Positions 3,793 to 37,400 of a stretch of DNA of 46,920 nucleotides are shown here, one piece after another. The stretch covers positions 1 through 46,920 of the forward strand of contig RFFQ01000090.1 of NCBI GenBank assembly GCA_003697105.1. The letters run 5' to 3'. Position 1 is the stretch's first letter. Every line of letters begins with the position of its first letter. The notes under the pieces were generated by a model that saw nothing but the letters and a program-made list of their open reading frames with translations, ran no database searches and was not told where the DNA came from. Source of the stretch: Gemmatimonadota bacterium. Its GTDB lineage: Bacteria > 4572-55 > J002. The position numbers and the translations under genes are program-made.

Positions 3793-4701
3793 ATGGCTGT
3801 TGATCTGAGTAATTCCCTTGTAATCGGCATTTCCTCACGCGCGCTTTTTGCACTGGAAAATGAAAATAAGATTTTTGAAGAGCAGGGTCTGGAAGCCTAC
3901 CGCCAGTACCAACGGGAACATGAAGACCAGATTTTGGAACCGGGCACGGCATTTCCGCTGATCAAAGCCTTATTGGAACTGAACAAGCTAGACCCCAACC
4001 GGCGAGTGGTGGATGTCATTGTCACGTCCCGTAACAGCCCAGATTTAGGATTGCGTATCTTTAATTCCATCGAACATTATCAGCTCGATATTATTCGCGC
4101 CGCCTTTACCGGTGGAGCATCACTGGCGCCATATTTAGCGGCATTTAATCTCGATCTGTATCTTTCCAAATCGGAAAAAGATGTGCAGGCGGCAATCAAT
4201 GCCGGATATGCGGCGGCATTATTGTATGATCCGCCTACCGGATACGATGCGTATCCGGATCAAATTCGGATTGCCTTTGATGCCGATGCGGTCTTGTTTT
4301 CAGAAGAATCAGAACGGGTGTATCAGGAACAAGGGTTAGAGGCATTTGTCGCTCATGAACGCGAAAGAGCCAAGCAACCCCTGCCGGCGGGTCCGTTTGC
4401 GAAATTGCTAAAAGTCCTTTCCCTGTTACAATTTGATTTAGATGCCGATCATCCCCCTGTGCGCATTGCGATTGTCACCGCACGGGGAAGTCCGGCTCAT
4501 GAACGGGTTATTCGTACCTTGCGGGAGTGGGATGTGCGAGTGGATGAAGCCTTTTTTTTAGGCGGTCTGGCAAAAGATAGCATCTTAAAAGCGTTCCGGG
4601 CGCATATCTTTTTTGATGATCAAGATGCCCACCTCTCCCGCACTGCCAAAGTAGTGCCCTCTGCGCGAGTTCCGTATAAACAACAGCTACCTTCCGCATA
4701 A
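3793..4701 (+). CDS. 5'-nucleotidase (cN-I-like family)
   Basis: LVIGISSRALF, RIAFDADAVLFSEESE, VTARGSPAHERV, HIFFDDQ motifs; AAGGA RBS at 3781-3785. Confidence 0.88.
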   Translation: MAVDLSNSLVIGISSRALFALENENKIFEEQGLEAYRQYQREHEDQILEPGTAFPLIKALLELNKLDPNRRVVDVIVTSRNSPDLGLRIFNSIEHYQLDIIRAAFTGGASLAPYLAAFNLDLYLSKSEKDVQAAINAGYAAALLYDPPTGYDAYPDQIRIAFDADAVLFSEESERVYQEQGLEAFVAHERERAKQPLPAGPFAKLLKVLSLLQFDLDADHPPVRIAIVTARGSPAHERVIRTLREWDVRVDEAFFLGGLAKDSILKAFRAHIFFDDQDAHLSRTAKVVPSARVPYKQQLPSA

Positions 4702-33518: not shown

Positions 33519-34688
33519 ATGCACAGTACGATTCCCATGAGTTTTGTAACCAAAGCGGCTCAAACCCCAGATGTTCTCTTTGCCATCATGAAAGCGATGG
33601 CAAAAAAGAAGATGTTTTACCACTTTACGGATTATATGGCGTCCCAACATAAGCCGCTCCGGCTGGGTCAAATTAGCCTCAAGATTACCAATGTGTGCAA
33701 CTTGCGCTGTAAAATGTGCGGACAGTGGGGCGAAAGTGGTTACAACCATGATAAATCTATGGCAGAACTGAAAGATGTGGTCCCATTGGAAACGTATAAG
33801 CGCATGGTGGATGAAGTCAAAGACGATAAGCCGTTCATTTACATTTGGGGAGGCGAACCGTTTCTTTACCCGGATTTGGTGCCTTTGCTCCGGTACATGA
33901 AGGAAGCCGGTTTAATGGGTTCTGTGGTGACCAATGCGGTCAAACTGGAAAAATACGCCGCCGAACTGGTTGACATTGGTTGGGATGCCTTCATGGTTTC
34001 GCTGGATGGTCCAAAAGACATCCATAATGAAATTCGGGGACATAAAGATAGCTATGACAAAGTCATTAACGGTATTACCCGACTAAATGAAGAAAAGCGG
34101 AAACAAGGAAAGAAAAAACCGTATACCATGATTTTGACCACCGTCATGCGGGACAATCCCCATGCGTTGTTCGATGTCTTCAAAATTGCGGAAGAGATTG
34201 AAGCCAGTTGTGTGGTGGTCTATTATTGCTGGTTCACCACAGAAGAGCGGGTCAAAGACCATACCCGCCAGATGCAAACCCGCTTTAACATTACGCCGTG
34301 GTCGGTGCATGGCTATGTTGCCGATTGGCATAACGTGAATGACCGGGAGCTTCAGGAGAGTGTGAAACGCATTAAATCCCACAAATGGAAAATGCCTTAC
34401 GTCTTCTATCCCGAATTGGAGATTGAGGACATCCCCCGATACTACAATGAACCGGGGAATTTCTTCGGACATGACAAATGTATCTCGATCTACACCACCG
34501 CAGAAGTCATGCCCAATGGGGATGTGGCAACCTGTCGCGATTACCCAGATTACATCACAGGCAATATCCGTGAAAATTCCATCAAAGAGATTTTCAACAA
34601 TGACAAATACTGGAAATTCCGCAACTCCATCAAAAATGAGGGGATGTTACCAATCTGTGCCCGCTGTTGCGGATTAATGGGGTTTTAA
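33519..34688 (+). CDS. Radical SAM protein with SPASM/Twitch-like C-terminal domain
   Basis: CNLRCKMC, WGGEPF, VSLDG; C-terminal C...PNGDVATC...GNI...CARCC; AAGGAG RBS. Confidence 0.88.
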   Translation: MHSTIPMSFVTKAAQTPDVLFAIMKAMAKKKMFYHFTDYMASQHKPLRLGQISLKITNVCNLRCKMCGQWGESGYNHDKSMAELKDVVPLETYKRMVDEVKDDKPFIYIWGGEPFLYPDLVPLLRYMKEAGLMGSVVTNAVKLEKYAAELVDIGWDAFMVSLDGPKDIHNEIRGHKDSYDKVINGITRLNEEKRKQGKKKPYTMILTTVMRDNPHALFDVFKIAEEIEASCVVVYYCWFTTEERVKDHTRQMQTRFNITPWSVHGYVADWHNVNDRELQESVKRIKSHKWKMPYVFYPELEIEDIPRYYNEPGNFFGHDKCISIYTTAEVMPNGDVATCRDYPDYITGNIRENSIKEIFNNDKYWKFRNSIKNEGMLPICARCCGLMGF

Positions 34689-34715
34689 GCCACGCCGACG
34701 GCTTCCGGTACAAAT

Positions 34716-34752
34716 AAAAAAACGCCTCGATCTGAATGGATCGAGGCGTTTT
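34716..34752. terminator. Bidirectional terminator between the radical SAM gene and the redox operon
   Basis: AAAAAAA-CGCCTCGATC-TGAATG-GATCGAGGCG-TTTT. Confidence 0.85.
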
Positions 34753-34765
34753 GCTATGTTGTGAT

Positions 34766-34957
34766 TTATGCAGATGGTGAAGATGAGGTTTCCTCTATCT
34801 CCAGGGGATCAACTGCAACGGTGTTGTCGTGCCGTGGAACCTCCACGTTACAGGCTTCGCCCATTCAGGTGGGCACCCCCATCGCCGGAAAGACCCAGCG
34901 CATCAGGATAAACCAACCCGCAAAAATTAACAACACGGAAAAATCTTCAAATTGCAT
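34766..34957 (-). CDS. Putative 63-aa single-pass membrane selenoprotein (Sec31), absent from the ORF track
   Basis: TAAGGAG RBS then ATG 34957; MQFEDFSVLLIFAGWFILMRWVFPAMGVPT-[TGA 34867-34865]-MGEACNVEVPRHDNTVAVDPLEIEETSSSPSA-TAA; SECIS-like hairpin after the UGA; TAA lies 14 bp before the terminator. Confidence 0.65.
34830..34852 (-). promoter_or_regulatory. Candidate bacterial SECIS element of the small selenoprotein
   Basis: mRNA UGU-AA-CGUGGA-GGU-UCCACG-GCA; stem begins 12 nt after the UGA; apical loop starts with G. Confidence 0.55.
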
Positions 34958-34966
34958 GGGTGCTCC

Positions 34967-35404
34967 TTAGGGTTGAACGACAATTTCAGGTTCTAGGTGG
35001 ACGGCGGTTTTCATGGAATTGGAGATCAAACAAACCTTTTCCGCTTTCGTAATGATGCGTATCGCCCGGTCGCGTTTATCTTCGTGGGGAATGACAATGC
35101 GCGGTCGCAACGTGATTTCGGTAATCATAAACCCGTTTTCGGTCTTTTCCAGCACTCCTTCGGCACTGGAGGAGTAGCTGGTAAATTCCAGTTTAGAGTT
35201 TTCGGCAATCGCCAAAAAGGTGGTCATCAAACAGATTTCCGCCGATGCCACAAATAGATGTTCTGGTGACCAGATGCCGGGATGTCCTTTCGGGAACTCC
35301 GGAGGTGTTGCGACTTCTATATCAGGCAGACCCTCACTGGAGAGGATACCTTTCCGTTGTTCATCCCACCGGAGACTCGTCGTATAAATATGTTTATCTG
35401 CCAT
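34967..35404 (-). CDS. OsmC/Ohr family protein
   Basis: ATPPEFPKG, WSPEHLFVASAEICLMTTF, AEKVCLISNS (two conserved Cys). Confidence 0.88.
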   Translation of the reverse strand: MADKHIYTTSLRWDEQRKGILSSEGLPDIEVATPPEFPKGHPGIWSPEHLFVASAEICLMTTFLAIAENSKLEFTSYSSSAEGVLEKTENGFMITEITLRPRIVIPHEDKRDRAIRIITKAEKVCLISNSMKTAVHLEPEIVVQP

Positions 35405-35406
35405 TA

Positions 35407-36141
35407 TTATTCCTCTGATTCCACCGAATTTAACACATTCTGAATACCGGCAATCAATTGCTGCTCGCTGGGCTTACCGAGAATTTCATTTCCCCCATTG
35501 ATCAAGGTTTGCGGGACGCCTCGCGTTTGATATTTTTGCACCAGATGGGGAAACTCACCGGCCATAACCATCTCTGCCCGAATGTTAGAGTTATGCAATG
35601 CCATTTTTTGAGCAAGCTTCACGGCTTGCGGGCAGTGCGGTCAGGTAGGAGTTACCATGACCTCCAAAACGACCGGCGCCTCAACCTGTTGCAGTGATGC
35701 TTTCGTCTGAGAAGAAAGTGCCGGTAACTCGCCACCAATCATCTGAAGTGACTCCAGAAATGCCGGAAATTCGTATCCCCCGGGCACACCGTAAATCCGC
35801 ACATTGGTATCTTTCCTTTCCCGCAGGATGACCGTTGCCGGGATTTTATCAACCCCGTATTTTTGGGCAATGGCGGCATCTTTTTGCAGGTCATAGACTT
35901 CCAGTCGGATATTGGGGACTAAATGGGCAATTTCGGTCATCAGAGTACGGGCGGTTTCGCACGATTCACACTCGAATTCTTGGGTAAATTGCACCAAGGT
36001 GATTTTGGTATTTAATTCCTGAAGCTCATTTTTCACCCGTTCTTGTTGTTGTTCATTCAACAATTTGAATTCAAAGGGCTTTGAGCAGGCAACTAACAGC
36101 ACAAACACGGGTATAAGCATGAGATACGTTATTGATTTCAT
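35407..36141 (-). CDS. Selenocysteine-containing protein disulfide oxidoreductase (PDO / AhpF-N-terminal-like, two thioredoxin folds), lipoprotein; 244 aa, Sec167
   Basis: ORF-track pieces 35641..36141 and 35407..35622 are in frame; the junction reads VMVTPT-[TGA 35643-35641]-PHCPQAVKLAQKMA, i.e. UxxC at the family's TPTCPxC site; first site CESC; lipobox LVAC; GVP cis-Pro motif in the C-terminal piece. Confidence 0.88.
35612..35629 (-). promoter_or_regulatory. Candidate bacterial SECIS element of the PDO gene
   Basis: mRNA GCAAGC-CGUGAA-GCUUGC; stem begins 11 nt after the UGA; G at loop position 2. Confidence 0.65.
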
Positions 36142-36347
36142 GGATTTTCCTCAAGCAAACGGTTCATCTCTTCCAAAATTTCATCTAAATTTTTGATACC
36201 CTTTTGGGCGGCGGCTTCACCTAATGTACCCCAGATGGCATCCCCACAAGCCAAACATCGGATGTTATAGGTGCGCAGGGGTTGGATCAACTGCGGATAA
36301 TTTTCCACAATCTCTTCGATGTAGGTATCAGCAGTGATTTTCGCCAT
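36138..36347 (-). CDS. DUF1858-like small CxxC protein
   Basis: KITADTYIEEIVENYP...IRCLACG...TLGEAAAQKG; AGGAGGT RBS; ATGA overlap with the PDO gene. Confidence 0.75.
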   Translation of the reverse strand: MAKITADTYIEEIVENYPQLIQPLRTYNIRCLACGDAIWGTLGEAAAQKGIKNLDEILEEMNRLLEENP

Positions 36348-36361
36348 GTTGCACCTCCTGA

Positions 36362-36829
36362 TTAGGATTGTGCCCGAAGTTCTTGTTCGATACGCTCATC
36401 CATCTCACTGGAGATCGATTCGACAACCGGCATGGCGGACGTTGCCGCCGTGGTTTGTCTTCGCCAGTAGAGCAGAATTAAAATCACCATGATCACCCCC
36501 AAAACCAGCATAATCACGGGCATGATCCACGCCACCATATTAAAGCCTTCCCGGGTGGGGATCGATAAAATCTGGCTGCCATATTCGGCGATATAAAAGT
36601 CCACGATTTCATCTTTGGATTTACCTTCTTCCGCCATTTGATTGACTTCGCGGCGCATGGTCATTGCAATGTCGGATTCATGATCCGCAATGGGAGACCG
36701 CCAACAACACGGCGCCAGCAATTCTTGCTGTGCTTCGGCAGCAACTTTTTTCTGTTCTGGGGTCAGTTCCGCATAACTCGTCGTTGCGAAGACTAGCAAC
36801 GTAATTAATAGCCATCTGACACACTTCAT
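36362..36829 (-). CDS. CcmH/NrfF-like exported redox protein with vicinal Cys-Cys and C-terminal TM anchor
   Basis: Signal peptide; LLAPCCWRSPIADHES...MRREV...GKSKDEIVDFYIAEYGSQILSIP...AWIMP. Confidence 0.8.
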   Translation of the reverse strand: MKCVRWLLITLLVFATTSYAELTPEQKKVAAEAQQELLAPCCWRSPIADHESDIAMTMRREVNQMAEEGKSKDEIVDFYIAEYGSQILSIPTREGFNMVAWIMPVIMLVLGVIMVILILLYWRRQTTAATSAMPVVESISSEMDERIEQELRAQS

Positions 36830-37035
36830 GTGTTCACCTCCGGGTGGGGTTGTGATGATTCACGGCGCTTTTTCGGAGAATCCCAGCCGAGTATCAAGCC
36901 AAATAAGGCTCCGTAAAGCGTGCTGAACCACGGATTTGCGGTAATAGGGCATGTGCCGCTGAGGCAACCCACGTATTGGTAATATAAAAATCCGGCTGTC
37001 GCACCGAGAACAGTAAAAATAAGTCCCTTTTTCAT
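36826..37035 (-). CDS. DUF6132-like two-TM protein with CxxxxC loop
   Basis: [41 protein letters not shown] overlaps at both ends. Confidence 0.75.
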
Positions 37036-37400
37036 GCGAATTGGTCTAACACCTCATCAAATTTATTTTTTAGAGCCGGTTTCGGTAATGCCCCGACCAC
37101 TCGATCAATTTCTTCACCATTTTTGAAAAAAATCAGGGTTGGAATGCCCCGGATGCCAAATTTTTGCGGCGTCTGCGGGTTGTCATCCGTATTGAGCTTA
37201 CAAACTTTGATCTTATGTTGGTATTCCGCGGCAAGCTCTTCCACAATGGGTCCCACCATCCGGCACGGACCGCACCACGGTGCCCAAAAATCTACCAACA
37301 CTGGTATGTCAGATTTTAATACATCGGTTTCAAAGGAGTCATCGGTTACGGTGACGGCAACATGGGTTTCATCTCTTTGTCCCTTGGAAAATAATCCCAT
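37032..37400 (-). CDS. trxA: Thioredoxin
   Basis: [22 protein letters not shown]. Confidence 0.96.

Follow-up and report, generated by a model that had tools for sequence, protein, structure and literature searches.

SELENOK and SELENOS are small eukaryotic proteins in which a single transmembrane (TM) helix is joined to a disordered cytosolic tail, with selenocysteine (Sec) in this tail near the C-terminus; they are thought to act at the membrane face, and their SECIS elements lie in the 3′UTR. Two families of membrane proteins, each with two TM helices, also come into consideration here: DUF6132 (Pfam PF19628), which carries a motif with the invariant core Y..VGC.SGTCP between its helices, and YgaP-like_TM (Pfam PF11127, DUF2892), a small membrane domain with a Cys-Pro ... 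K-L-G-V motif at its end. Among catalogued selenoproteins, the PDO family (TIGR02187), a homolog of the AhpF N-terminal domain, is a close described system (PMC13188914, Table 1). The published model of the bacterial SECIS element (bSECIS) has an apical loop of 3 to 9 nt, a stem of 4 to 16 bp and a spacing of 16 to 37 nt from the UGA, with a G in the first two loop positions and a minimum free energy (MFE) of ≤ −7.5 as further terms (PMC13188914, section 5).

Here, we analysed a 46,920-nucleotide stretch of DNA from a Gemmatimonadota bacterium (contig RFFQ01000090.1, assembly GCA_003697105.1), referred to below as the window. With a probability of roughly 0.85, positions 34957..34766 on its minus strand are a gene for a 63-residue single-pass membrane selenoprotein in which UGA is read as Sec. 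An initial annotation, made from the sequence, had proposed such a protein with a UxxxxC motif, and the proposal is supported by homologues that have Cys or TGA at the Sec position, by the sel genes of the genome and by a hairpin specific to the TGA forms.

Organization of the gene and its operon

The small gene is the seventh and last gene of an operon, since six packed genes lie upstream of it (34967..37400, minus strand) and the gene beyond the thioredoxin gene (past 37400) is divergent. On the basis of Pfam and NCBIfam matches, the six upstream genes encode a thioredoxin, a DUF6132 protein, a CcmH-like protein, a DUF1858 protein, a PDO selenoprotein and OsmC. When the sequence was read directly, the osmC stop codon TAA (34969-34967) was found to be fused to a Shine-Dalgarno GGAG (34966-34963; together 34963..34969, minus strand), which is followed after a 5-nt spacer by the ATG of the small gene at 34957 (minus strand). 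The osmC stop thus does double as a ribosome-binding site (RBS), as initially annotated. The resulting RBS-led open reading frame has 63 codons and an in-frame TGA. From translation and the family alignment, its first 30 codons (34868..34957, minus strand) specify a short acidic N-tail, one TM helix and a conserved W-x-x-P-x-x-G-V-P-T, with the hydrophobic helix of the window protein ending W-V-F-P-A-M-G-V-P-T. The TGA (34865..34867, minus strand), aligned by column with Cys and TGA homologues, would be read as selenocysteine U31. It is followed by M-G-E-A-C, in which the codon of the partner cysteine C36 (34850..34852, minus strand) completes U-x4-C; this residue is nearly invariant in the family alignment, and its codon is also part of the lower SECIS stem. 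Translation then gives an acidic, probably disordered tail of 27 residues (34766..34849, minus strand; 1 K/R, 7 D/E) that ends at the stop codon TAA (34768-34766). An intrinsic, bidirectional operon terminator of 14 pairs, 7 of them G-C, followed by a U-run, lies at 34719..34752 (minus strand). The TM helix, GVPT-UGA-MGEAC, the acidic tail and the TAA before the terminator are therefore all at the places first claimed for them. The acidity of the tail is a feature of the window protein and is atypical, the tails of most relatives being basic.

A radical SAM/SPASM gene (33519..34688, plus strand) converges on the small gene and shares the bidirectional terminator. We considered it as a peptide maturase and rejected this role, since no such neighbour recurred in 82 loci; for the same reason, we take the adjacency to be coincidental.

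Two genes upstream of the small gene lies the two-domain PDO gene (36141..35407, minus strand), which is split by a TGA at 35643-35641 within VTPT-U-PHC. Its readthrough product scored 236 bits on TIGR02187 (PDO_seleno_TRX; cut-off 185), and a hairpin, GCAAGC-CGUGAA-GCUUGC, begins 11 nt past the PDO UGA. The PDO N-terminus resembles a lipoprotein signal ending L-V-A-C, and gene callers would report two ORFs at this locus. Sec forms have been listed for four of the six upstream families, namely thioredoxin, DUF1858, AhpF-N-like PDO and OsmC-like (PMC13188914, Table 1). Among the six upstream genes of this operon, only PDO has Sec, which together with the small gene makes two selenoproteins in one operon.

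The genome that the window comes from has the machinery for Sec incorporation. We detected selB (383.8 bits, cut-off 242), selA (585 bits) and selD (355.9 bits), the latter two above their curated cut-offs, together with a tRNA-SeC gene with the anticodon tca. The absence of sel genes had been named at the outset as an observation that would speak against the proposal; selA, selB, selD and tRNA-Sec were all found. The selD gene (genome G000, contig C12:941-1864, minus strand, locus L024) itself has an in-frame TGA and appears to encode a Sec form of selenophosphate synthetase.

Homologues with Cys or TGA at the proposed Sec position

A HMMER search (E ≤ 0.001) returned 51 proteins, comprising the two halves of the window gene, one 2217-residue protein and 48 small proteins of 44 to 100 residues. 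At the TGA column, Cys is present in 46 of the 48 small homologues, and the remaining two carry Gly and Trp, respectively. A public protein collection stores the gene halves as separate predicted proteins (P0001 and P0002, 32 and 30 residues), and these split entries show how the family gets mis-annotated. A profile search gave 726 proteins, of which all among the 120 listed are unnamed or “hypothetical” and have no Pfam domain, while a word-index protein search with the window protein yielded no candidate. In the family alignment, L18, L23, P24, G27, T30, C31 and C36 are nearly invariant, and the consensus reads W-F-x-L-x-R-W-V-L-P-x-L-G-V-P-T-C-M-S-G-x-C. The family is widespread and unnamed, with a median length of 55 residues and a predicted core in which L-P-x-L-G-V-P-T-[U/C]-M-S-G-x-C comes after a TM helix.

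Sec forms are much more numerous than Cys forms in the genomes sampled. Among 41 genomes (the window's own and 40 others), matches were found in G002, G018 and G001 (E 8e-7 to 0.02), all with TGA, and the TGA form was present in 3/3 genomes of the window's own phylum. The DNA pattern [LF]-P-x-x-G-[VI]-P-T-TGA-x4-Cys, run over 185,579 species genomes, gave at least 119 stretches. Among the matches listed, 79/80 were clear members (the exception is L033); that GVPT and the second Cys are conserved in these 79 loci was imposed by the pattern. The taxa among the matches listed include Acidobacteriota, Geobacter, Thermodesulfobacteriota, Syntrophobacteraceae, KSB1, Armatimonadota, Planctomycetota, Spirochaetes, Fibrobacteraceae, Akkermansiaceae and others. 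We also ran profile searches that were free of the motif. In Planctomycetota, 25 of 251 genomes matched and TGA occupied the column in 25/25; although the second Cys was not imposed here, it was found at U+5 in 21/25 and within U+5 to U+7 in 23/25. In Acidobacteriota, 89 of 301 genomes gave 90 matches, with TGA in 89/90; the match lacking TGA is weak and partial, and the TGA form is therefore present in 88/301 genomes. Over the two phylum samples, TGA was found in 114/115 matches, in a search that scored the top 20 to 24 first-look candidates per genome, so that some Cys forms could be missed.

These results follow the course expected from the initial annotation: homologues keep TGA or Cys at position 31, the Cys five residues further on is retained, and neither TAA nor TAG was seen at the UGA column in any homologue. 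They also bear on whether the UGA is a true stop, in which case the product would be a 30-residue membrane peptide ending in GVPT, with the hairpin and the downstream frame either incidental or part of a regulatory RNA. The stop-free run past the TGA, measured in three frames, does not discriminate between these readings, being no longer in frame 0 than in the others (median of 25 codons in frame 0 vs 39 in frame +1), and the tail beyond about U+12 is not conserved in the family, which means that the second half may consist mostly of filler. A true stop would agree with both observations, as it would with the database entries for the separate halves and with a window hairpin that is no better than those of shuffled sequences. 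However, the Cys-form homologues run straight through the UGA column, and the Cys at U+5 recurs in Planctomycetota where nothing in the search imposed it. Together with the absence of TAA and TAG from the column, the company of selB, and a TGA-specific hairpin that keeps a fixed spacing, has loops beginning with G and shows compensatory changes (see below), this makes a true stop very unlikely.

Since an ATG directly follows the TGA in the window (UGAAUG), we also considered that translation stops at the UGA and re-initiates at the adjacent AUG, producing a membrane peptide of 30 residues and an acidic one of 32. The M-S-G motif is common to TGA and Cys forms, and the ATG is thus better read as the conserved Met of C/U-M-S-G-x-C than as a restart codon; moreover, Met is at U+1 in only 55/94 TGA forms and no RBS precedes the ATG. 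We regard re-initiation as scarcely credible. Extremely improbable, too, is readthrough of the UGA by near-cognate insertion of Trp or Cys, which would yield the full-length protein without selenium. The Trp and Gly homologues (P0048, P0028) would be compatible with such readthrough, but we take it that they may be TGA codons translated under other genetic codes. Readthrough of this kind would leave unaccounted for the full Sec machinery, the presence of another, bona fide Sec gene in this operon, and a SECIS-type hairpin that is conserved only in TGA forms.

A bSECIS-type hairpin specific to TGA forms

The hairpin first claimed for this site is real and its lower stem begins 12 nt past the UGA (34828..34852, minus strand). 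It consists of CGUGGA-GGU-UCCACG, in which a 6-bp upper stem closes the loop GGU, a 2×2 internal loop and a lower stem UGU/ACG, and the loop begins about 23 nt past the UGA. With the lower stem, its energy is −9.5 to −10.1 kcal/mol, while the upper stem alone has −6.5 kcal/mol and needs the contribution of the lower stem to reach the −7.5 criterion. The window hairpin satisfies four published bSECIS constraints, and the suggested check against the bSECIS model thus came out in favour of the claim. We based the assignment of this feature on its energy, the published constraints, its modal position in the family and covariation.

Taken by itself, the window hairpin does not exceed chance. When the 71-nt region was folded alone, z was +0.89, with 166/200 shuffles folding at least as well, and an equally good hairpin occurred in 6/100 shuffles of the window sequence. 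An Rfam scan of 34600-36300 (E ≤ 10) returned only sub-threshold noise and no SECIS family. The significance of the hairpin therefore comes only from comparison with relatives. In the best hairpin of each of 82 TGA forms, the loop starts 17 to 24 nt past the UGA in 80/82, and the modal position, +24, is shared by 33/82, the window among them. The loop has 3 nt in 60 of the 82 forms, begins with G in 67 and has G within its first two positions in 78. As a control, we used Cys forms from 35 metagenome loci, which represent 28 distinct downstream sequences. The published constraints, applied to contiguous stems only, were satisfied by 62/97 TGA forms vs 1/28 Cys forms. With a looser, post-hoc hairpin definition, the counts were 83/97 and 2/28, respectively, although the Cys forms are richer in G+C.

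To follow covariation, we made a gap-free alignment of 32 TGA forms chosen for a loop at +24. Changes on both sides were found in 9/9 pairs, and 86.1% of cells were paired, compared with 65.3% in shuffles (0/500 reached the observed value) and 25 to 46% when the partner was slid. Because the 32 sequences were selected on structure, the percentage paired is inflated; the compensatory changes are not. RNAalifold found no consensus on a codon-anchored MAFFT alignment of 83 TGA forms, because the hairpin registers lie about 3 nt apart between subgroups, and these register differences are the reason why per-sequence hairpin scans and a gap-free subset were used. In TGA forms L032 to L111, residues U+6 to U+12 are unusually uniform (for example, S-V-E-S-R-R and D-V-G-S-R-R), and the Cys forms vary freely there. 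We attribute this uniformity to the SECIS stem, which is built from these codons, so that RNA structure constrains the protein sequence.

In the mechanism that we propose, the small gene would be translationally coupled to osmC, and SelB and Sec-tRNA(Sec) would read the UGA at 34867-34865 as selenocysteine, directed by the hairpin 12 to 37 nt downstream. We infer the insertion of selenium at the UGA, as we do the membrane topology and the chemistry discussed below.

Co-occurrence with selB

selB scored above its cut-off in 5/5 diverse carrier genomes. In Planctomycetota, it was present in 24/25 carriers vs 161/226 non-carriers (Fisher p = 0.007, kinship ignored), and in Acidobacteriota in 87/89 carriers vs 143/212 non-carriers (Fisher p = 2.6e-10, kinship ignored); these Fisher values overstate the association, since genomes within a phylum are kin. 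The Acidobacteriota non-carriers include three unpublished genomes (G447, G344 and G319), without which the count is 140/209. As selB is frequent in either phylum (about 70%), the test has limited power, and the co-occurrence of carriers with selB is a supportive rather than decisive argument for Sec decoding. It had been proposed at the outset to check whether the TGA form occurs only with sel genes: 87/89 and 24/25 carriers have selB, and the three exceptions are G175, G546 and G578, two of them with genomes of about 2 Mb.

Comparison with described families

The 63-residue window product had no Pfam or NCBIfam match. When 52 aligned members of the family were compared with Pfam and NCBIfam, nothing beyond noise was obtained, and no Pfam match was found at E ≤ 1. 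None of the 119 prokaryotic selenoprotein families in the May 2026 inventory is a single-TM U-x4-C protein (PMC13188914, Table 1); inventory rows with a Pfam, NCBIfam or TIGR identifier were in effect covered by the model scans, and families with only a cd or PTHR identifier were compared by description. The main texts on BSepDB (111 families) and deep-Sep do not contain the word “membrane”, and their supplements could list further families. A literature search for “UxxxxC” together with “selenocysteine” gave no match, and a natural Cys form found only an unnamed 56-residue cluster in the Protein Atlas (score 0.85). The initial annotation could not assign the protein to a named family, and neither Pfam, NCBIfam nor the 119-family inventory supplied one. 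We conclude that this is very probably a genuine selenoprotein family that is absent from selenoprotein catalogues and of a known mechanistic kind.

That kind is represented in the same operon and the same genome by the PDO, whose UGA is likewise decoded via a hairpin just downstream, whose Sec is paired with a nearby Cys and which has Cys-form homologues. The small protein differs from it in having no thioredoxin fold and in its spacing, U-x4-C rather than the U-x2-C of PDO. It is also much more compact, with about 55 to 63 residues, one TM helix and a disordered tail, and it has no Pfam or NCBIfam model.

The DUF6132 protein of the window operon (37035..36829, minus strand; Pfam match) shares with the small protein a C-x-S-G-x-C motif beside a TM helix, and the U-x4-C motif had been described as mirroring its CxxxxC loop. 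The resemblance is real, but it is confined to a 12-residue motif, and the small protein has a single helix. Homology beyond the motif was rejected, as hhalign aligned 12 columns with a probability of 4.8%, and hmmscan gave no PF19628 match in any of the 52 members. Of about 140 other loci, only 2 had a DUF6132 gene close to the small gene. In a KSB1 locus (L034), the DUF6132 gene is directly upstream: it occupies 3834-4055 (plus strand) and ends exactly at the start of the small gene (4055-4219, plus strand), an overlap that suggests translational coupling. Downstream in L034, at 4240-4458, is an ORF for an FmdB-type zinc ribbon, the frame of which meets a TGA near its C-terminus.

Several loci from Acidobacteriota and Geobacter have YgaP-like_TM genes immediately upstream of the small gene. 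Since they encode two TM helices and none of the 52 members matched PF11127, we regard YgaP-like_TM as a neighbour and not a relative. The likeness to SELENOK and SELENOS is one of analogy only, there being no sequence similarity to the family (no Pfam match at E ≤ 1 among the 52 members).

Topology, neighbourhoods and possible function

An AF2 model of a Cys-form relative has one helix at residues 2 to 25 (pLDDT 91 to 96); the motif follows as a turn, and the tail is disordered (pLDDT 56 to 60). In 90/94 TGA forms, the 25 residues past the helix hold more K+R than the N-flank (mean of 3.98 vs 0.37; the median N-flank is 2 residues). By the positive-inside rule, this K+R-rich C-terminal side places the juxtamembrane U-x4-C pair probably at the cytoplasmic face. 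For the window protein, the topology rests on homology, because its own tail is acidic.

The neighbourhoods of the small gene are heterogeneous. Across 82 loci, we found an ArsR-type regulator in 14 (among 71 nearest-upstream ORFs, it accounts for 8), a TlpA/Trx-like protein in 11, an RND transporter in 10, an ECF sigma factor with zf-HC2 in 9, OsmC in 5, in addition to the window, and DUF302 in 4. In locus L110, a thioredoxin gene is directly upstream of the small gene, and nothing recurs downstream of it (at most 2/69). Function is accordingly only weakly constrained by these neighbourhoods, with no partner in more than 14/82 loci. In a genome of the same class as the window's (G001, L013:1498-1704 and following, plus strand), a peroxiredoxin-like gene lies downstream of the small TGA-form gene. 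In G001 and G002, the same divergent conserved gene precedes the small gene.

The protein would present a selenol/thiol site tethered to the membrane. As the most likely role, although we hold it tentatively and at slightly below an even chance, we propose a redox couple. In this mechanism, the Sec-x4-Cys pair would form a redox site, anchored at the cytoplasmic face, that alternates between the selenol/thiol and selenylsulfide states. Thioredoxin-type partners would keep this site reduced, and its targets would be oxidants, or reactive species of sulfur or selenium, at the membrane.

The main functional rival retains Sec decoding but has the U-x4-C pair bind a soft metal or metalloid (Hg, Cu, As, Se or Te) as a chaperone, sensor or hand-off site. 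Selenol-thiol pairs are good soft-metal ligands, as known from textbook chemistry, and the ArsR/SmtB metalloregulators and RND transporters counted above, together with the recurrence of YgaP-like_TM and DUF302 genes nearby, would suit such a site. Yet the ArsR neighbours reach only the generic family cut-off and no specific metal-sensor equivalog, the RND context is confined to one acidobacterial subgroup, and the window operon is one of thiol redox (Trx, PDO, OsmC and CcmH-like), with neither a metal transporter nor a metal regulator. We consider metal binding a doubtful explanation, if one to be kept in mind, and continue to favour the redox couple.

A bolder version, which we advance as improbable, is that the protein might be a minimal membrane-anchored selenol enzyme. 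At the inner membrane face, a single juxtamembrane Sec with a resolving Cys would then reduce hydroperoxides, either lipid or organic, or else reactive species of sulfur or selenium, and be recycled by thioredoxin, and the family would be among the most widespread bacterial selenoprotein families, existing almost only in the Sec form.

Implications

If our reading is correct, gene finders, which stop at TGA, have concealed a whole selenoprotein family by cutting its genes in half, and counts of bacterial selenoproteomes would change. Among the genomes sampled, about one in three Acidobacteriota species and one in ten Planctomycetota have the gene. The claim is directly testable, since cultured carriers exist, judging by their database titles: Geomobilimonas luticola JCM 17780, Thermodesulfatator autotrophicus S606 and Tautonia sp. 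JC769. A catalogue dominated by soluble thioredoxin-fold enzymes would gain a micro-protein of about 55 residues and, with it, a membrane location, and the family would serve as a very small natural model for a Sec-x4-Cys site and its SECIS. Were the minimal selenol enzyme the true function, these proteins would be a bacterial functional counterpart of the eukaryotic membrane selenoproteins.
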